A stretch of DNA of 64,000 nucleotides, from assembly GCA_046757885.1 (NCBI GenBank), contig JBHHZD010000009.1, forward strand, positions 1,779-65,778. The letters are read 5' to 3'. Positions within the stretch are counted from its first letter, which is position 1; each line of letters opens with the position of its first letter. The notes under the pieces are model-generated. The model made no database searches. It saw only the letters and a list, made by a program, of their open reading frames with translations, and had not been told where the DNA came from. Source of the stretch: Gemmatimonadota bacterium. GTDB lineage: Bacteria; Gemmatimonadota; Gemmatimonadetes; Palauibacterales; Palauibacteraceae. Positions 17,383 through 61,631 of the stretch are shown here, piece by piece. A program made the translations under genes and the position numbers.

Positions 17383-17679
17383 TCAGCGGGCGGGCCGGAT
17401 GTCGGGCATCCTCGCGGTCGGACGAACGGCCGCGAGCGCGAGGGCCGCGGCGGCCGCTCCCCCGTACACGACGCTCACCGGCACCCAGGTGCCCCAGACG
17501 CCGAGCGCGTACCACGGGGACGCCGCCAGCGTGAGGGGAAAGAGGGCGGAGGCCAGGACGATGCCCCATGACCCGAACAGACGTCCCGCGATCTCCAGTC
17601 CGAGCGCGAAGCCGTAGGTCGCGGCCGCCAGCCACGTCGCGTAGGCGCCGGCCCGGATCGCCGTCGTCGGAACTCGCAT
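17383..17679 (-). CDS. Small hydrophobic membrane protein (98 aa)
   Basis: ATG at 17679 with AAAGGAG 8 nt upstream. Three predicted TM stretches. No recognisable family. Confidence 0.5.
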   Translation of the reverse strand: MRVPTTAIRAGAYATWLAAATYGFALGLEIAGRLFGSWGIVLASALFPLTLAASPWYALGVWGTWVPVSVVYGGAAAAALALAAVRPTARMPDIRPAR

Positions 17680-17863: not shown

Positions 17864-18343
17864 CTACTCTCGCTCGAACCCGCCCGACGCCTCCTCGATC
17901 TCCGCCGTCCACCGGACCTCGACCGCGCCACGGAGCGAGCGCGCGGTCGGGCACTTCGCCGCGTGTCTCTCCAGGGCCCGGTCCACGCGCTCCCTCGATC
18001 CCGCGGGAATCCGCAGTCGGTAGTGGACCGCCACCTCGGTGAGGACCGGAATCCCGTCCCGGATCTCGTTGATTCCCTCTACATCCGCCACGATGTCGTC
18101 GGGGCCCAGCACGATCTCGCGCGCCTCCAGCGCACCGTTCAGGGTCCCCAGCATTCAGCCGCCCGTCGCGGCCACGATGTAGTCCACGGGAAGGGGCAGA
18201 TCTCTGGCATCGATCCTGTAGTGCTCCTTGATCGCCCCGTGGACGCCCATGTCGACGACGGCGTCGGCCGCGATCGCGGCCCTCCGGTGCACGCCCTCGA
18301 TCTTGTTGACCGTCGCCCGCGCGGTGTAGAAGGGGGAGTCCAT
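17864..18343 (-). CDS. OsmC/Ohr-family peroxidase-like protein with in-frame TGA (18155-18157) at the first catalytic Cys position
   Basis: ATG at 18343 with GGAGGAA upstream. Two same-frame ORFs are separated only by the TGA. The joined product reads ...PVDYIVAATGG[TGA]MLGTLNGAL...ERHAAKCPTARSL, matching the OsmC GGC and CP motifs. Confidence 0.7.
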
Positions 18344-18482
18344 GGCCGTTCCTCCGGAAGGGGAATCGTGCGATGCGCCTCCGCATACTAGGATCCGGCT
18401 TCCGGACGGGACAGAGCGCGCGTAGCGGCGGCGCCTGCGGCTCCTATATTGGTCGCCGTACCGCCGTCGGACGGGAGGAGAC

Positions 18483-18881: not shown

Positions 18882-19468
18882 CCGGGACGGAGGCGGGCGC
18901 CGGCCCTCCCGTCCTCCACACCGAGCGCCTCGCACTGAGGCCCTTCACGGCGGAGGACGCGAACGACGTGCGGCGGCTGGCGGGCGATCGGGAGATCGCG
19001 GGCGGCACCCTCACGATCCCGCATCCGTACGGACCCGGGGTGGCGGAGGCGTGGATCGCCACGCACCCGGAGGCCTACCTGCGGGGCGAGCAGGTCGTGT
19101 TCGCGGTCGAGAGGCGCGGCGACGGGGCGCTCGTGGGCTCGGTCGGCCTCGACATCGCGCCGCAGCATCGCAGCGCGGAGCTGGGCTACTGGATCGGCCG
19201 ACCGTACTGGGGAAGCGGATTCGGGACCGAGGCGGCGGCGCGCGTCCTCGCGTTCGGGTTCGCGGACCTGGCCCTGAACCGGATCAGCGCGCGGTGCTTC
19301 GCGCGGAATCCGGCGTCCGGCCGGGTGCTGGAGAAGCTGGGCATGCGGCACGAGGGCTGCGGCCGCGGTGAGATCCTGAAGTGGGGGGTGTTCGAGGACA
19401 TCCACCACTACGCGATGCTCAAGGCGGAGTTCGAGGCCGCGCTGGCCGCCGGGGCCGGGAGCCGCTAG
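18878..19468 (+). CDS. GNAT-family N-acetyltransferase (RimJ/RimL-like)
   Basis: GTG overlaps the msrB stop (GTGA at 18878-18881). LRPFTAEDA..., GYWIGRPYWGSGFGTEAA acetyl-CoA-binding region. Confidence 0.85.
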   Translation: MTGTEAGAGPPVLHTERLALRPFTAEDANDVRRLAGDREIAGGTLTIPHPYGPGVAEAWIATHPEAYLRGEQVVFAVERRGDGALVGSVGLDIAPQHRSAELGYWIGRPYWGSGFGTEAAARVLAFGFADLALNRISARCFARNPASGRVLEKLGMRHEGCGRGEILKWGVFEDIHHYAMLKAEFEAALAAGAGSR

Positions 19469-19511
19469 TCTCCGCGCGGAGAGTCATGGGTCGCCAGCTC
19501 GAGGAGGACGG

Positions 19512-19886
19512 ATGCTGCCCGCCAGCGCCTACAAGATCCTGCACCTGTTTGGAATCCTGTTCGTCTTCGCGTCGCTGGGAGGGCTCAGCCTTCACGCGCT
19601 CAACGGCGGAACCCGGGCGACGAACGCCTCGCGGCGGCTCGTCGCGTGGTCCTACGGTGGAGGGCTCCTCCTCATCCTCGTGACGGGGTTCGGCCAGCTG
19701 GCGCGCCTCGGGCTGATGGAGGGAGGCGTGCCGGGTTGGGCCTGGGGGAAGCTCGTCGTGTGGCTGGCCCTGGGCGGCCTGCTCAGCGTCCCGTATCGCC
19801 ATCCGGAGCGCGCCCGGCTCCTGTGGTTCGGGGCACCCGTTTTGGGTGCGGCCGCCGCGTACCTGGCTCTCTACAAGCCGTTCTGA
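19512..19886 (+). CDS. Small integral membrane protein (4 TM)
   Basis: ATG at 19512 preceded by GAGGAGGA. 124 aa, strongly hydrophobic. Family not recognised with certainty. Confidence 0.6.
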   Translation: MLPASAYKILHLFGILFVFASLGGLSLHALNGGTRATNASRRLVAWSYGGGLLLILVTGFGQLARLGLMEGGVPGWAWGKLVVWLALGGLLSVPYRHPERARLLWFGAPVLGAAAAYLALYKPF

Positions 19887-19895
19887 CGCCTTTCC

Positions 19896-20702
19896 GTGGG
19901 CGCGCCGCGGCTCGCCGGGATTTTCGTTCATCCGGTCAAGTCCACGCGCCGGATCGAGGTCGAGACGGCCGAGCTCGACGAGTGTGGCCTCGTCCTGGAT
20001 CGGCGCTGGATGCTCGCCGATCCGGAGGGCCGTGCCGTCACGCAGCGGGAACGGCCGGCGCTCGCCCGGGTCCGGACGCGCGTCGCGGGGGATCGAATCG
20101 TCGTGAGCGCGCCCGATCGGGAGGATCTCGTCCTTCCGGCGCGACCGGTCCCCGGTGGAGAGGTCCGGGTCGAAGTCTGGGACGACCGGTTCTCCGCGCG
20201 CCTCGTCGAGGGTCCCGGGTCGGCCTGGTTCAGCGAGCATCTGGGGACGCCGTGCCGGCTCGTCTGGATGTCGGACGATCTCGTGCGGCCCGTCGATGCG
20301 CGACACGGGAGAGACGGCGATCGGGTCGCGTTCACGGACGGGTATCCTCTCCTGCTCATCGGCCGGGCGTCCCTGGACGATCTGAACAGCCGGCTCGACG
20401 TACCCGTCCCGATGGACCGCTTCCGCCCGAATCTGGTGGTCGAGGGGTCGGAGCCCTTCGCAGAGGACGGGTGGGCGAGGGTGAGGATCGGGCAGGCGAC
20501 CTTCCGGGTGGCGAAATCCTGCGCGCGCTGCTCCGTGACGACGATCGATCAGGCGACCGGTGAGAAGGGCCCGGAGCCGCTCCGCACTCTGGCCACGTAC
20601 CGGAAGAGGAACGGGAAGGTCCTGTTCGGGCAGTACCTGCTGCACGACGCCCCGGGGTGGCTCCGCACGGGTGACCCCGTCGACGTCCTCGAGATCCGCT
20701 GA
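19896..20702 (+). CDS. MOSC-domain protein (N-terminal beta-barrel plus MOSC)
   Basis: GTG at 19896. FVHPVKS start, RFRPNLVVEG, and the conserved Cys context AKSCARCSVTTIDQ. Confidence 0.85.
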   Translation: MGAPRLAGIFVHPVKSTRRIEVETAELDECGLVLDRRWMLADPEGRAVTQRERPALARVRTRVAGDRIVVSAPDREDLVLPARPVPGGEVRVEVWDDRFSARLVEGPGSAWFSEHLGTPCRLVWMSDDLVRPVDARHGRDGDRVAFTDGYPLLLIGRASLDDLNSRLDVPVPMDRFRPNLVVEGSEPFAEDGWARVRIGQATFRVAKSCARCSVTTIDQATGEKGPEPLRTLATYRKRNGKVLFGQYLLHDAPGWLRTGDPVDVLEIR

Positions 20703-33012: not shown

Positions 33013-34814
33013 TACCCGTGGGCGCGAAGGCCGTGGTCCGAGCCCTGGAAGACGAGGGCGTCCCGTTCGCGTTCGGCATCCCGGGCACGCACAACATAGA
33101 GCTGTACGACGCCCTCGGGCGATCCTCCTCCGTCCGCCCGGTCCTCGTGACGGACGAGCGGAGCGCCGCCTTCATGGCCGACGGACTCTGGCGGGCGTCG
33201 GGACGGCTCGGGTGCCTGAACGTCGTGCCGGGCGCCGGCCTGACGCACGCGCTCTCCGGCGTGGCGGAGGCCTACCTGGACAACGTCCCGGTGCTCGTGC
33301 TCGGGTGCGGCGTGCGCCGGGACTCCGGGCGCGCGTTCCAGCTCCACGACATCGACCAGGCGGCCCTGGCCCGTCCCGTGACGAAGGCCGTCGTTCGGCC
33401 CCTCGAGGGTGCCGAGATCTACCCGGCCGTGCGGCGGGCGTGCGCGCTGGCCCGCGAGGGCGCGCCCGGTCCCGTCATGGTCGAGATCCCGGCGGACCTC
33501 TACCTCGTGCCCGGCCGGGGCGCGGCGGGCGGAGCCCCGGGGTCGGCGGAGGGAGCTCCCACGAAGGCGCCCGGTTCCCCGGGGGGGGGCGACCGGGATG
33601 GCGGTGCCCGGGCGACCGGCCCGGCCGAGCCCGCCGCGGAGCTCGTGGAGCGAGCCGCGGCCCGGCTCCGGGCCGCGCGTCGTCCGCTCCTGTACGTGGG
33701 CGCCGGAGCGGCGGCGGCCGCCCCGGAGCTCGTCCGGCTCGCGGAGCGCCTCGAGATGCCCGTCGCCTCCACGCTCCAGGGAAAGGGCGTGTTTCCCGAG
33801 TCGCATCCGCTCTTCCTGTGGCCGGGCTTCGGCGACGCCGCCCCGGCGTTCGCGCGGCGCGCCGCCCGCGGCTGTGACGCCACGCTCGCCATCGGGTGTC
33901 GGTTCAGCGAGGTCGGGACCGGCAGCTATGGGATCGACCCGCCCCGACCCCTCGTGCACGTGGACATCGACCCGGTTGTCTTCGGCAGAAACTATCAGGC
34001 CGACGTCGCGATCCGGGCGGACGCCGGCGCCTTCGCGCGGGCCCTGCTCGAACGGATCGGCACCGACCCGCCGCCGGCGCCCGACGAGGCACTGCGGCGG
34101 GCGATCCGGGAGGGCCACGAGGAGGTGTGGAGGAAGTGGCTGGAGGCGGCCCGGGGGGACGGCGTGTCGCCGGCGCGCCTCCTGCGGTCCCTGCAGGAGG
34201 GCCTCGGAGGCGACGCCGTATTCGTGACCGACAGCGGGAACGGCACGTTTCTCGCCGCCGAGTGCCTGCGGTTGGACCGGCCCGGTTGCTTCCTCGCTCC
34301 GGTCGACTTCTCCTGCATGGGCTACTCCGTCCCCGCCGCGATCGGGGCGAGCCTCGGCCGGCCCGGCGACCCCGTCGTGGCGCTCGTCGGGGACGGAGCG
34401 TTTCTCATGACCGGGCTCGAGCTCCTCACGGCGGCCGGGAGCGGGATCGGAGCTGCGTTCCTCGTGCTTCGGGACCGGGAGCTGGCGCAGATCGCCCAGT
34501 TTCAGCGAACGGCCCTGAACCGCCCCACGTGCAGCCGGCTCCCGGACTACGACCTGGAGGCCCTCTGCCGGGGAGTCGGCGTCGAGCACCGGAAGCTCGC
34601 CGCGAACGACGGGATCGATGCCGCCGTCGCGCACGTGGCGGACCGCCTTCGCGCGGGCGATCCGATCGTCCTGGAGGTCCAGATCGACTACTCGGAAAAG
34701 ACCTATTTCACCCGCGGCGTGGTGCGAACGAACTTCGCCCGCCTGCCCTGGGCCGACCGGCTCCGCTTCCTCACCCGGGCCCTGACCCGCCGGCTTTCGG
34801 TCAGCGGCCGCTGA
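33009..34814 (+). CDS. Thiamine-pyrophosphate-dependent enzyme (acetolactate-synthase-large-subunit-like)
   Basis: ATG at 33009 overlaps the GMC stop (ATGA). N-terminal VRALEDEGVPFAFGIPG, central domain, and the C-terminal GDGAFLM TPP motif. Unusual Gly/Ala/Pro-rich ~40-aa linker at about 33514-33640. Confidence 0.9.
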   Translation: MIPVGAKAVVRALEDEGVPFAFGIPGTHNIELYDALGRSSSVRPVLVTDERSAAFMADGLWRASGRLGCLNVVPGAGLTHALSGVAEAYLDNVPVLVLGCGVRRDSGRAFQLHDIDQAALARPVTKAVVRPLEGAEIYPAVRRACALAREGAPGPVMVEIPADLYLVPGRGAAGGAPGSAEGAPTKAPGSPGGGDRDGGARATGPAEPAAELVERAAARLRAARRPLLYVGAGAAAAAPELVRLAERLEMPVASTLQGKGVFPESHPLFLWPGFGDAAPAFARRAARGCDATLAIGCRFSEVGTGSYGIDPPRPLVHVDIDPVVFGRNYQADVAIRADAGAFARALLERIGTDPPPAPDEALRRAIREGHEEVWRKWLEAARGDGVSPARLLRSLQEGLGGDAVFVTDSGNGTFLAAECLRLDRPGCFLAPVDFSCMGYSVPAAIGASLGRPGDPVVALVGDGAFLMTGLELLTAAGSGIGAAFLVLRDRELAQIAQFQRTALNRPTCSRLPDYDLEALCRGVGVEHRKLAANDGIDAAVAHVADRLRAGDPIVLEVQIDYSEKTYFTRGVVRTNFARLPWADRLRFLTRALTRRLSVSGR

Positions 34815-36624
34815 CGTAGGCGTGATCGAGGTATTGATACATGTCCTGCACGATCGTGTCGCCGGTGCCACCCCAGGTGGGATTGAACTTCACGATCGAC
34901 CACCAGTGCGACACGCCGGTACCGCTGAAGCGTACGTTCGTGTAGTTGATCACCCGCACGCCGTCGATCCACAGACGGGCGATGCCGTCCGCGTTGCCGC
35001 CCGTGTTGTACTTCAGGTACACCTCCCAGTGTACCCACTGGCCGCGCGCCAGAACGGCCGAGGCCTGGTTCTCGTTGGGACCCAGGTTCCGGGCGAGTCC
35101 CGCCTCCTGCAGTCGAATCTGGGGCTCGAACGGCCCCGCTCCCGTGCCCTGGAAAGAGAGATACGCGGGGCGGGAAGAGGAGCCTGGCCTCTGCAGGAAG
35201 AACATCTTGTTCACCCCCGATTTGTGCCCCTGCCAATTCGCGGATACACGGTGCCAGAAGGAGAGGTAGATCTCCCTGGACTGCCGCAGGCCGGGACTTC
35301 CGACGTTGGTCCCGTGCGCGACGCCGCCGGATCCGCCGGCCGGGAACAGCGCCGCCCCGACTCCGGAGGGCGAGGCCGGCGCGCCCGGGTCCGACACGAT
35401 GGACCAGTTCGCGTTGCTGAAGTTCGTCCAGCGGTCTTCCCCGAACGCGTCGAACGGCCGCTCCGTGATCGGCGTCATCCCCGCCGGCTCGTTCGGGTGC
35501 CCCGCACTCTGCGACGGCGGGGGGGGCGCGCTCGTGCGAGCCGAGGCCACGTTCGAGAGCGGCCCGTCCACCCGGCCGACCGCGTCCACCCGGAAGGCGA
35601 CGAGCGCAAATTCGTAGTCCGTGGAGGGGTTGAGCCCGTCCACCCGGCAGAGCACGAGCGTGCCCGGCCCGGATCCGGCGAGCGAGCCGCAGCTGCCGCT
35701 CACCGGGGCGGCCGCGTCCCAGCCGAACGGCGGACTTCCGGCGCGCACTTCGTAGGTGGCCGCCGCTCCCGTCCCGTCATCGGCCTCCGTGAAGGACAGG
35801 GTCACCCCGCTCGCGTCCACGCCCGTCACCCAGAGGTCCGTCACCTGCCCGGGCGGCGGATCCGGCACGCGCACCGAGGCCGTGTCGGCGTGGCTCCCGC
35901 CGGCGGCCATGACCGTGACGGAGCCCGGAGCCAGGGCCCGCACGACCCCACTGTCGTCCACGATGGCGACGGCCGGATCCGAGGACGACCACGAGACGCC
36001 CGCGTCCAGGGTGTCGCCGGCCGAGCCGAGCAGGGTCGCTGAGAGAGCGACGGTGCGGCCGGTCGGAAGCTCGACGGAATCCGGCCACACGACGACGGCC
36101 ACGACCGTGTCCACCGGCGGCGGAGCAGCCGAGCCCGGGGCGGACGGGCCGCTCGAGGAGTCCGCCGGAGGCGCGGAGGGCGTAGCCGCCCTCACCCGAA
36201 TCGTCGCCGTCGCACGTCGCTCCTCGTGCGACGCCGTGATCACGACCTGCCCCTGCCGCCGGGCCCTCACGACGCCGCTGTCCGAGACGGAGGCGATGTC
36301 GACGTCCGAGCTCTTCCAGCGGATCCTCCGGTTCTCCATCGGGTGGGAGGCGGCGTCCAGCACCGTCGCCCGGAGCGCGACCGTCTGGCCCGGGTCCAGC
36401 GTCACGCTGGCCGGCGCGACCTCGACCGAAGCGATGGCGGGGGCGGGAGCCGTGGCAGGCGGATCGGCAGCGGGGGGCCCGGCGATCGAGCTCGACCCTC
36501 CGCTGCACCCGACGACCCCGAGCCCCGCGATCCAGGCGAAGAGGGCGTTCCGTCCCCGACGGCGGAGAAGGGAGATCGCTCGCGCGTGAGCGAGAAAAGA
36601 GAGGAGCAGGTGAACGGCCGACAT
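34801..36624 (-). CDS. Lipoprotein with two Big_2 domains, an FN3-like domain and a C-terminal jelly-roll (polysaccharide-lyase/LamG-like) domain
   Basis: ATG at 36624. Lipobox GVVGC. Two repeats of the type V.P..V.L..G.T..L.A...D..G......V.W.SSD..IA.V...G. The FN3-like segment is followed by ...WVHWEVYLKYNTGGNADGIARLWIDG. The 3' end overlaps the TPP gene convergently by 14 nt. Confidence 0.8.
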   Translation of the reverse strand: MSAVHLLLSFLAHARAISLLRRRGRNALFAWIAGLGVVGCSGGSSSIAGPPAADPPATAPAPAIASVEVAPASVTLDPGQTVALRATVLDAASHPMENRRIRWKSSDVDIASVSDSGVVRARRQGQVVITASHEERRATATIRVRAATPSAPPADSSSGPSAPGSAAPPPVDTVVAVVVWPDSVELPTGRTVALSATLLGSAGDTLDAGVSWSSSDPAVAIVDDSGVVRALAPGSVTVMAAGGSHADTASVRVPDPPPGQVTDLWVTGVDASGVTLSFTEADDGTGAAATYEVRAGSPPFGWDAAAPVSGSCGSLAGSGPGTLVLCRVDGLNPSTDYEFALVAFRVDAVGRVDGPLSNVASARTSAPPPPSQSAGHPNEPAGMTPITERPFDAFGEDRWTNFSNANWSIVSDPGAPASPSGVGAALFPAGGSGGVAHGTNVGSPGLRQSREIYLSFWHRVSANWQGHKSGVNKMFFLQRPGSSSRPAYLSFQGTGAGPFEPQIRLQEAGLARNLGPNENQASAVLARGQWVHWEVYLKYNTGGNADGIARLWIDGVRVINYTNVRFSGTGVSHWWSIVKFNPTWGGTGDTIVQDMYQYLDHAYVSGR

Positions 36625-37087
36625 GTTCCGACTCCCGTCGACGGCGATCGTGTGGCCGGAGCCGGCCTTTCCGGCTCCGGCGTGGCCGTCCACGACCTGC
36701 GTCGCATCGGGAATCGGACGGGAGGCGCACACCCCTCCCGTTCGATCCGAAGCTCATCCCACTGGCAGCCCGACCGGCGTGGCAGCAAGCGCTGCGGTAG
36801 CCTCGCGGCTTTGCGTCCCCGGCTTTCGCCGGGTTTGCCCTGAGACAGCGGACGGCTCGCGGGCGCTCTCGCACCCTGCACGGATTCCTTGCGAAATGCG
36901 TGCCTCTCTGTATCAGACGATGAAATAGAGACTTATGATCCCGGCACTCCGGGGCCGGGCGAAAGCCCGTTCACAGGTGTGCTACTTGTTGACCCGACCC
37001 GGGGCGGCCGACTTTACACCCGGCGGCCCGCTTCCTATTCTGGCGGGGCTCGAGTTCCTGCTCTCCCTCTGACGCCGGAGGAGTACC

Positions 37088-59238: not shown

Positions 59239-59239
<1 letters not shown>
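58496..59239 (-). CDS. comB: 2-phosphosulfolactate-phosphatase-family protein (ComB-like)
   Basis: ATG at 59239 shares 1 nt with the accC stop (TGATG). 247 aa. VVIDVLRASTSI... and ...TNGT motifs typical of the family. Confidence 0.75.
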
Positions 59240-60579
<1,340 letters not shown>

Positions 60580-60585
60580 GACGGA

Positions 60586-61068
60586 TCAGGACGATCCGTC
60601 CGGCTCGACCCGGAAGAGCACCTGGCCGAACTCGACGGGCTCCGCGTTGTCGGCGCAGATCTCCCGGATCGTGCCACCGATCTCCGCCTCGAGCTCGTTC
60701 ATGAGCTTCATCGCCTCGAGGATGCAGAGGGTCTGGCCCTTCCGGATCGTGTCGCCCGTCTCCACGTACGGGGGGGCATCGGGCGCCGGAGCCCGGTAGA
60801 ACGTGCCGACCATGGGCGAGACGACGTCCACGAGGCCGCTCTCCGCCGTGGGGGAGGAGGAGGGTGGAGCCGACGCCGCCTCCCGGCCGGCCGTCGCCGC
60901 CGGAGGGTCGGCGACCGGAGCCACCGGGCCTCCGGCCCCATCCAGCAGCTGCACGATGGGGGACTTGGAGATGCGGATCCGGGTCCCGAACCGGGAGATC
61001 TCCAGCGAGTCGATTTCCGCCTCGTCAACCATGTCGATCAGGCGACGGACCCAGTCAAGATCGATCAT
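60586..61068 (-). CDS. accB: Biotin carboxyl carrier protein
   Basis: The ATG overlaps the efp stop (ATGA). Pro/Ala linker. C-terminal lipoyl-like domain with the EAMKLMN biotinylation motif. Confidence 0.9.
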   Translation of the reverse strand: MIDLDWVRRLIDMVDEAEIDSLEISRFGTRIRISKSPIVQLLDGAGGPVAPVADPPAATAGREAASAPPSSSPTAESGLVDVVSPMVGTFYRAPAPDAPPYVETGDTIRKGQTLCILEAMKLMNELEAEIGGTIREICADNAEPVEFGQVLFRVEPDGSS

Positions 61069-61631
61069 TTCGCAACCCGTTCAAGGTACTTGTCCACCGT
61101 CCGGTCCACCTTGATCACGTCTCCCGTCTCGATGAACAGCGGAACCTGGACCACGGCACCCGTCTTCAGGCGGGCGGGCTTCGTGCCCCCCTGGGCCGTG
61201 TCGCCGCGCACACCCGGGTCGGTCTCGACGACCTCCAGCTCGACGAACTGCGGGAGCTCCAGGGCGAGGACGGTTCCGTCCCGGGTCAGGCCCTCGCACT
61301 CCATGTTCTCCTCGAGATACGCGAGCTGATCGGCGCCGATCGTCTCCGCGGACAGGGGAATCATCTCGTACGTCTCGAGATCCATGAAGTAGTGGAGGTC
61401 ACCATCCCGGTAGGAATACTGGATCGGACGCCGCACGAGCCGGACTTCCATCACTTTTTCGCCGGCGCGGAAGGTCCGGTCGATCACGGCTCCGGACAGC
61501 ACCGACTTCAGCTTCGAGCGGACGAAGGCGCCCCCCTTTCCGGGCTTCACGTGTTGAAAGTACGTGATCGTGTACAGGGTGCCGTCCAGCTCGATCACCA
61601 TCCCGTTTCGAAAGTCAGATGTATCCGCCAT
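61065..61631 (-). CDS. efp: Elongation factor P
   Basis: ATG at 61631, 188 aa. FRNGMVIELDG..Y.I..FQHVKPGKGGAFVRSKLK is a canonical EF-P N-terminus. Confidence 0.95.
   Translation of the reverse strand: MADTSDFRNGMVIELDGTLYTITYFQHVKPGKGGAFVRSKLKSVLSGAVIDRTFRAGEKVMEVRLVRRPIQYSYRDGDLHYFMDLETYEMIPLSAETIGADQLAYLEENMECEGLTRDGTVLALELPQFVELEVVETDPGVRGDTAQGGTKPARLKTGAVVQVPLFIETGDVIKVDRTVDKYLERVAK

Follow-up and report, generated by a model that had tools for sequence, protein, structure and literature searches.

OsmC (structures 1QWI and 1NYE from Escherichia coli and 1UKK from Thermus thermophilus) and Ohr (1N2F from Pseudomonas aeruginosa and 6EB4 from Chromobacterium violaceum) are two-cysteine organic hydroperoxide reductases, in which the first cysteine is peroxidatic and the second resolving. 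OsmC-like selenoproteins were reported in 2005 from the Sargasso Sea (three sequences, COG1765, motif UxxT; PMC1088965), were found again in the Global Ocean Sampling (GOS) data in 2008, and are included in catalogues of 2022 and 2026. The present analysis concerns a gene related to these proteins in a Gemmatimonadota bacterium, located within a 64,000-nucleotide stretch of DNA (assembly GCA_046757885.1, contig JBHHZD010000009.1, positions 1,779 to 65,778), here termed the window. The frame of this gene is interrupted by a TGA at codon 63. Comparison with related genomes makes it very probable that this UGA is a conserved selenocysteine (Sec) codon of an intact OsmC/Ohr-superfamily gene, followed within the coding region by a hairpin of the bacterial selenocysteine insertion sequence (SECIS) type.

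The interrupted gene and its homologues

The gene is encoded on the minus strand, where the frame runs from an ATG (18343-18341) through 62 codons to the TGA (18157-18155), and from there through 96 codons to a TAG (17866-17864). The TGA is the only one in the 159-codon frame (18343-17864, minus strand). The elements of the locus are as follows.

17864..18343, minus strand: predicted OsmC-like selenoprotein gene, 159 sense codons including Sec codon 63, plus TAG (translation, PF02566, orthologues of like architecture in 80 genomes)
18349..18355, minus strand: Shine-Dalgarno-like GGAGGAA, 5 nt 5' of the ATG at 18343-18341 (direct sequence reading)
18284..18286, minus strand: codon 20, on the 5' side of the UGA, a possible catalytic Arg, invariant and placed in the region of the N-terminal beta-strands
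18155..18157, minus strand: UGA codon 63, predicted to be read as Sec (TGA in 80 of 80 orthologous loci; aligned with the peroxidatic Cys of OsmC/Ohr)
18119..18135, minus strand: hairpin of the bacterial SECIS type, GUGCGCU-GGA-GGCGCGC, with a stem of 7 bp and a U.G-closed GGA apical loop, starting 19 nt after the UGA (comparative pairing)
17951..17953, minus strand: TGC codon 131, invariant Cys of KCPTA, putative resolving Cys (alignments; aligned with the CP Cys of OsmC/Ohr)

The start codon, the TGA, the open reading frames (ORFs) on either side of it and the GGAGGAA had all been described in a first-pass annotation of the window, and re-reading and translation confirmed them at these positions. 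When bridged, the product reads LPVDYIVAATGG, then the residue encoded by the TGA, then MLGTLNGALEAREIVL and, farther on, HAAKCPTARSL. The bridged 159-residue product matches the Pfam OsmC family PF02566 (49.6 bits, gathering score 27.5) over residues 50-145, so that the OsmC domain spans the TGA. The curated subfamily models were both missed by the window protein, with 15.9 bits versus a threshold of 85.8 for TIGR03562 (OsmC) and 12 bits versus 88.85 for TIGR03561 (Ohr); ten diverse orthologues reached 24.6 bits at most on these two models.

Orthologues were collected as the best 80 genomic loci from a collection with one genome per species, representing 80 species-representative genomes. Nearly all of them are metagenome-assembled genomes (MAGs) of Gemmatimonadota, including Candidatus Palauibacter, Candidatus Benthicola and Longimicrobiales. 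For Candidatus Palauibacter, the loci include two on complete chromosomes, NZ_OZ253465.1 (L037) and NZ_OZ250143.1 (L044). Four of the orthologue-bearing MAGs (L050, L061, L071 and L080) are labelled as Gammaproteobacteria or Acidobacteria(ota), owing perhaps to mis-binning, mislabelling or horizontal transfer. In all 80 loci a TGA occupies the identical codon, between the flanks ...LPVDY.VA..G. and [ML]LGTLNG.L, and none has TGC or TGT at this position. Three assemblies made independently, from different sequencing runs, also contain the exact split gene of the window with its TGA.

At the level of annotated proteins, about 100 of the 120 closest database entries are fragments of 89-102 aa, 70-84% identical, which begin at the Met after the TGA and cover the C-terminal 55-60% of the bridged query. 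Where the sources give these fragments a name, it is "OsmC family protein", "organic hydroperoxide reductase OsmC/OhrA" or "uncharacterized OsmC-like protein", and never selenoprotein. The full-length relatives (152-161 aa) are 49-66% identical to the bridged protein and carry, in the column of the TGA, the Cys of GGC-MLGTL, encoded by TGC or TGT in L084-L086. Codon-position entropies (positions 1/2/3) are 0.51/0.42/1.19 bits in the 21 codons upstream of the TGA and 0.63/0.52/1.30 bits in the 90 codons downstream, a correspondence that indicates equal purifying selection on both halves at the protein level.

Two database proteins show another residue at the site. The JGI product P0009 (L088:283-768) has Trp, the underlying DNA has TGA and the hairpin is kept; evidently, the JGI source translated the contig under a code with UGA as a sense codon, thereby hiding the Sec codon. 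In P0001 (L087:366-833, on a 906-bp Logan contig), GGA (Gly) replaces the TGA and the hairpin is intact (-11.3 kcal/mol), pointing either to a read error or to a loss of Sec in the very recent past.

Among solved structures, the bridged protein is closest in sequence to OsmC of T. thermophilus (1UKK, E = 3e-5) and to Ohr of P. aeruginosa (1N2F, E = 2e-3). Residue 63 is aligned with the reactive Cys of both ("AHAGCF" in 1UKK, "YSACF" in 1N2F), and Cys131 with the second Cys of both. The assignment of the TGA to the conserved Cys column, as proposed in the first-pass annotation, is thereby borne out by the homologues as well as by the two structures. The AlphaFold model of a Cys homologue (P0002, 62% identical), which stands in for the window protein, has a predicted local distance difference test (pLDDT) score of 94.7. 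Foldseek matched it to 2ONF, with a template modelling (TM) score of 0.80, and to OsmC and Ohr entries, with TM scores of 0.67-0.72, in agreement with the OsmC/Ohr alpha/beta fold. In the model, helix 52-74 has residue 63 at its middle, and the part upstream of the TGA supplies three beta-strands (residues 10-32); neither half-ORF is therefore a domain by itself. Arg20, which is encoded in the upstream part, is invariant in the full-length homologues and falls within one residue of Arg18 of Ohr in the phmmer alignment, and its position suggests a catalytic role.

The hairpin downstream of the UGA

The first-pass annotation had described a 6-bp hairpin 19 nt after the UGA, in which nucleotides 18135-18130 pair with 18124-18119, and this stem is present at exactly these positions. 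An extra U.G pair (18129/18125) extends it to 7 bp and reduces the loop to GGA; the alternative is the 6-bp stem with a UGGAG loop. The fold of the single sequence is not significant, and the significance of the hairpin thus derives solely from its comparison with other genomes.

For this comparison, the region from the TGA to +66 nt was aligned for 81 sequences, 74 of them distinct, such that columns 23-29 pair with columns 33-39. Standard pairs occupy 99.6% of the cells in the 74 distinct sequences. Compensatory switches are apparent at two pairs, from C-G to U-A in 4 sequences at one of them and from A-U to G-C in 18 sequences at the other. In total, 22 doubly changed cells were observed versus 5.6 ± 1.7 in column shuffles, none of 500 of which reached 22. 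When the 3' partners were slid by 1-3 columns as a control, pairing fell to 15-71% and the covariation disappeared.

The position of the stem within the coding region lends these switches a further consequence. The pair that alternates between A-U and G-C joins the third position of an Ala codon (GCA/GCG, synonymous) to the second position of a Val/Ala codon (GUG/GCG, non-synonymous). At the pair that alternates between C-G and U-A, the rarer variants exchange Ala and Val on both arms (GUG...GCA, GUA...GUA). RNA pairing thus constrains the protein sequence. Third-position entropy is 0.50 bits within the stem versus 1.29 bits outside it, and only two third positions of the stem vary, i.e., the covarying one and another that toggles between U.G and U-A. 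The minimum free energy is -7.5 kcal/mol or lower in 73 of the 74 distinct sequences.

The published consensus for bacterial SECIS elements specifies a loop of 3-9 nt, a stem of 4-16 bp, a UGA-to-loop distance of 16-37 nt and a minimum free energy of -7.5 kcal/mol or lower, together with a G in the first two loop positions, according to the pattern N1-G-[G/U]-N-N2 (PMC13188914, Fig. 2). The window hairpin agrees with this consensus in every respect, having a 3-nt loop, a 7-bp stem, the loop sequence U-GGA-G/A, a UGA-to-loop distance of 26 nt and a minimum free energy of -10.9 kcal/mol. Three Cys-form homologues whose DNA was retrieved (with TGC, TGT and TGT at the site) have no equivalent hairpin, their sequences forming other pairings of -1.9 to -6.9 kcal/mol. 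A conserved downstream structure, which the first-pass annotation had named as a point to be checked, is hence conserved among the TGA-containing loci with compensatory changes and absent from the three Cys forms. In Rfam, the locus matched no SECIS family or other relevant RNA, and only chance-level matches (E of 0.13 or higher) were obtained.

Probable selenocysteine decoding and competing explanations

The predicted course of events at this locus would be as follows. One intact gene would give rise to an OsmC/Ohr-superfamily thiol peroxidase of about 17 kDa, in this case selenol-based. When the ribosome reaches the UGA, the hairpin 19 nt downstream would serve as a bacterial SECIS, whose GGA loop, with U.G or U-A as its closing pair, would recruit SelB-GTP-Sec-tRNA(Sec). 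Sec would then be inserted at codon 63, and translation would run on as far as the TAG (17866-17864). After folding, Sec63 would occupy the peroxidatic Cys position of OsmC/Ohr in the long central helix, and Cys131 of KCPTA the resolving position. The selenolate would presumably attack a hydroperoxide to yield a selenenic acid, which Cys131 would resolve into a selenenylsulfide, to be reduced in turn by a cellular thiol reductant. By analogy with its Cys-containing relatives, the window protein may therefore be regarded as a putative selenol-based hydroperoxide reductase that cycles via a selenenylsulfide with Cys131.

Genes for the Sec machinery were sought in the window and beyond. The window contains no tRNA detectable by ARAGORN and no selA, selB or selD detectable by tblastn with the E. 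coli SelA, SelB and SelD queries (used as search seeds only), in keeping with the first-pass annotation. The SelA motif GDKLLGGPQ, back-translated for high GC, led to SelA genes in three Gemmatimonadota MAGs, and these SelA sequences, used as queries, revealed SelA in at least about 45 genomes of the Gemmatimonadota lineage, including Longimicrobiales. SelA and the OsmC orthologue occur together in at least 2 of the 80 MAGs. One of these is SRP195330_co1_27 (assembly CAZEUW01; orthologue L035, SelA L287/L289), the SelA of which scores 532 bits on TIGR00474 (cut-off 268); the other is SRP195330_co1_41 (assembly CAZSKS01; orthologue L046, SelA L292). SelA is not known to have any role other than making Sec-tRNA.

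Several observations weigh against Sec decoding. With tblastn and ARAGORN, no selB, selD or tRNA-Sec was detected in the window, the 80 loci of the orthologue and the flanks of selA (10 kb for the genes from the first SelA query, 4 kb for those from the second); the 80 loci, like the window, also contained no selA. Among orthologue-bearing MAGs, SelA was seen in at least two, which are genomes other than that of the window. The absence of selB, selD and tRNA-Sec from the vicinity of the gene and from the 4-10 kb selA flanks suggests that the sel genes are dispersed in Gemmatimonadota. The fold of the window hairpin by itself is unexceptional (66 nt, 71% GC, z = -1.65, with 14 of 200 shuffles equally stable), and the first-pass annotation was right to grade it as weak support on this sequence alone. 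In addition, one locus of Longimicrobiales (L076, 3190-3255) keeps the TGA without the canonical hairpin (-5.1 kcal/mol). At this locus, GALAVR replaces GALEVR, and another, longer structure is predicted farther downstream.

The explanations that dispense with Sec were considered against the same body of evidence. A frame that is intact but for one in-frame stop has the look of a recent mutation, and the lack of Sec machinery in the window would accord with an OsmC-family pseudogene that has just acquired a nonsense codon. Such a lesion is nevertheless almost inconceivable here, since a TGA common to so many species cannot be recent, and since purifying selection is evident on both sides of it and the hairpin covaries. 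Nor can the 80 orthologues be copies of one contaminant, as the loci differ by 21-37% at the protein level. An error of sequencing or assembly would have required only one base to turn TGC or TGT into TGA. Its probability is negligible, given that the same TGA occurs in the three independent assemblies and in 80 other genomes from many projects. The first-pass annotation had left the choice between a fresh nonsense mutation or artefact and a Sec codon at the first catalytic Cys position with the second Cys kept, with a preference for the latter; the former is rejected on these grounds, and the invariant TGA, its alignment with the Cys column and the covarying hairpin uphold the preference.

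A split gene is another way to account for the arrangement, whereby translation would stop at the TGA and restart at the adjoining ATG (UGAAUG), and the resulting polypeptides of 62 and 96 aa would assemble. The ATG directly follows the TGA in 78 of the 81 sequences, and gene callers predict these same two ORFs. The Met is ancestral, however, because C-M-L-G-T is the reading of the Cys forms as well; in three orthologues the codon is CTG or CTA, and CTA is not among the starts (ATG, GTG and TTG) of the ORF tool. Moreover, the ATG lacks a Shine-Dalgarno-like sequence upstream, and the break would cut helix 52-74 midway, at the catalytic residue, which would be lost. The covarying hairpin and its absence from the Cys forms would also be left without explanation, and a split gene is consequently judged to be very improbable. 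The remaining possibility is recoding without Sec, either because a near-cognate tRNA (for Trp, Cys or Arg) reads through the UGA with stimulation by the hairpin, or because UGA is reassigned across the lineage. Read-through can be promoted by downstream structures, the stretches searched yielded no selB, selC or selD, and one source placed Trp at the codon in the orthologue P0009. In contrast, the true stops of the window are most often UGA (24 of 33 confident ORFs), and 52 of the 80 orthologues of the present gene end with it; the ordinary use of UGA as a stop excludes a reassignment of the code. The site, furthermore, is the redox Cys column, which conforms to the documented pattern of Sec/Cys exchange (PMC13188914), the loop sequence and spacing fit the SelB-type SECIS model, and SelA is present in at least two gene-bearing MAGs. 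Recoding without Sec is accordingly considered very unlikely, and Sec remains by far the most probable residue at codon 63.

Genomic context and relation to known systems

The divergent neighbour of the gene was identified as msrB in the first-pass annotation, and the encoded protein is indeed MsrB (TIGR00357, 172.8 bits versus 113). The redox context inferred from it does not extend to the family, since msrB lies beside the orthologue in only 9 of 75 informative loci; the redox-repair neighbourhood is thus local, and msrB linkage was dropped as a functional clue. Other genes nearby encode GNAT, a MOSC protein, ferritin, FKBP and a metallo-beta-lactamase/rhodanese protein. About 185 nt downstream of the OsmC gene, a 98-aa ORF (17383-17679, minus strand) with a hydrophobic N-terminus and no family match occurs, and the same position is kept in 8 orthologous loci. 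The segment 13949-15711 (minus strand) encodes a metallo-beta-lactamase-fold/rhodanese fusion, followed by an ArsR-type helix-turn-helix regulator and an SdpI-like membrane protein. The fusion resembles Blh-type sulfur dioxygenase/sulfurtransferase weakly (37.8 bits versus a cut-off of 625). Located 2-4 kb from the selenoprotein gene, the three genes have the appearance of a cluster for sulfur or persulfide stress. In the 80 loci, the 3 kb on either side of the orthologue contained none of them.

Farther away, a c-di-GMP-I riboswitch aptamer (RF01051, 71.7 bits versus a gathering score of 35) is located at 36761-36849 (minus strand), directly 5' of a 650-aa ORF (34801-36753, minus strand); it is the sole Rfam match in the whole window at gathering scores. 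When the window was scanned for further cases of two coding segments in one frame with a single TGA between them, three pairs emerged, all of which were rejected. In accB and accC (59239-61080, minus strand), accB ends with the TGA at 60586-60588 and accC starts at once in the same frame, and translation identified an ordinary gene pair. Translation likewise identified ordinary adjacent genes in the case of the PDZ and RDD proteins at 2097. In the third pair (19380-19886 and 19887-20702), the upstream segment has weak coding statistics and the downstream segment is the MOSC gene.

The clade to which the window gene belongs is widespread and systematically mis-annotated, and has an unusually clean covarying SECIS. 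Gene callers cut its genes in two, whereby the catalytic residue and the upstream 62 codons are lost from annotation. The deposited fragments would represent the 3' parts of selenoprotein genes, the selenoproteome of Gemmatimonadota would hence be undercounted, and a dedicated profile flagged for selenoproteins would remedy this. The gene, together with SelA, would place Sec decoding in many Gemmatimonadota MAGs. Should the lineage be largely aerobic, the clade would counter the view that selenoproteins rarely persist in aerobes. A short SECIS whose clean compensatory changes force correlated amino-acid changes also provides a teaching case, and could be used in training predictors of SECIS elements and selenoproteins on high-GC genomes, where chance hairpins abound. 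The natural Sec/Cys pairs (49-66% identity) permit a direct test of the gain of Sec at the peroxidatic position of OsmC/Ohr. No paper on this clade or on the use of Sec in Gemmatimonadota was found in the literature, and neither the 2026 selenoproteome review (text) nor the 2016 comparative-genomics paper (text and supplements) mentions the phylum.

Compared with the Cys-containing OsmC and Ohr proteins, the window protein has in common the fold (as judged from the model of the Cys homologue), the redox positions in the helix and in the C-terminal CP motif, and the invariant N-terminal Arg. It differs from them in its low identity (13-21%) and in having a predicted Sec, rather than Cys, at the peroxidatic position. 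The logic is like that of Sec-containing peroxiredoxin, glutathione peroxidase and AhpD-like selenoproteins, in which Sec takes the place of a catalytic Cys, Cys homologues are widespread and the SECIS is within the coding sequence (PMC13188914), whereas the folds and active-site motifs of those proteins are unrelated.

The closest resemblance is to the OsmC-like selenoproteins of the COG1765/YhfA type (NF041052). Both belong to the PF02566 superfamily, and in both a bacterial SECIS immediately follows the UGA within the coding region; in the known family, as described, Sec would occupy the first conserved Cys position, to judge from the UxxT motif. The best NCBIfam match of the window protein is in fact NF041052, "OsmC-related (seleno)protein" (OsmC_like_Se), at 23.5 bits versus a cut-off of 95, and ten diverse orthologues score 20.4-33.6 bits, likewise below the cut-off. 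The motif of the window clade is U-M-L-G-T (UxxxT) in contrast to UxxT, and the clade is essentially confined to Gemmatimonadota MAGs. By these comparisons, the clade appears to work like the known OsmC-like selenoproteins, yet it lies outside the curated NF041052 family. On balance, we incline slightly towards an independent conversion of Cys to Sec, separate from COG1765/NF041052, in a phylum-wide, unannotated clade of Gemmatimonadota that includes the sponge-associated Candidatus Palauibacter, and in which the SECIS would lie so deep within the active-site helix that correlated choices between Ala and Val are imposed by RNA pairing.

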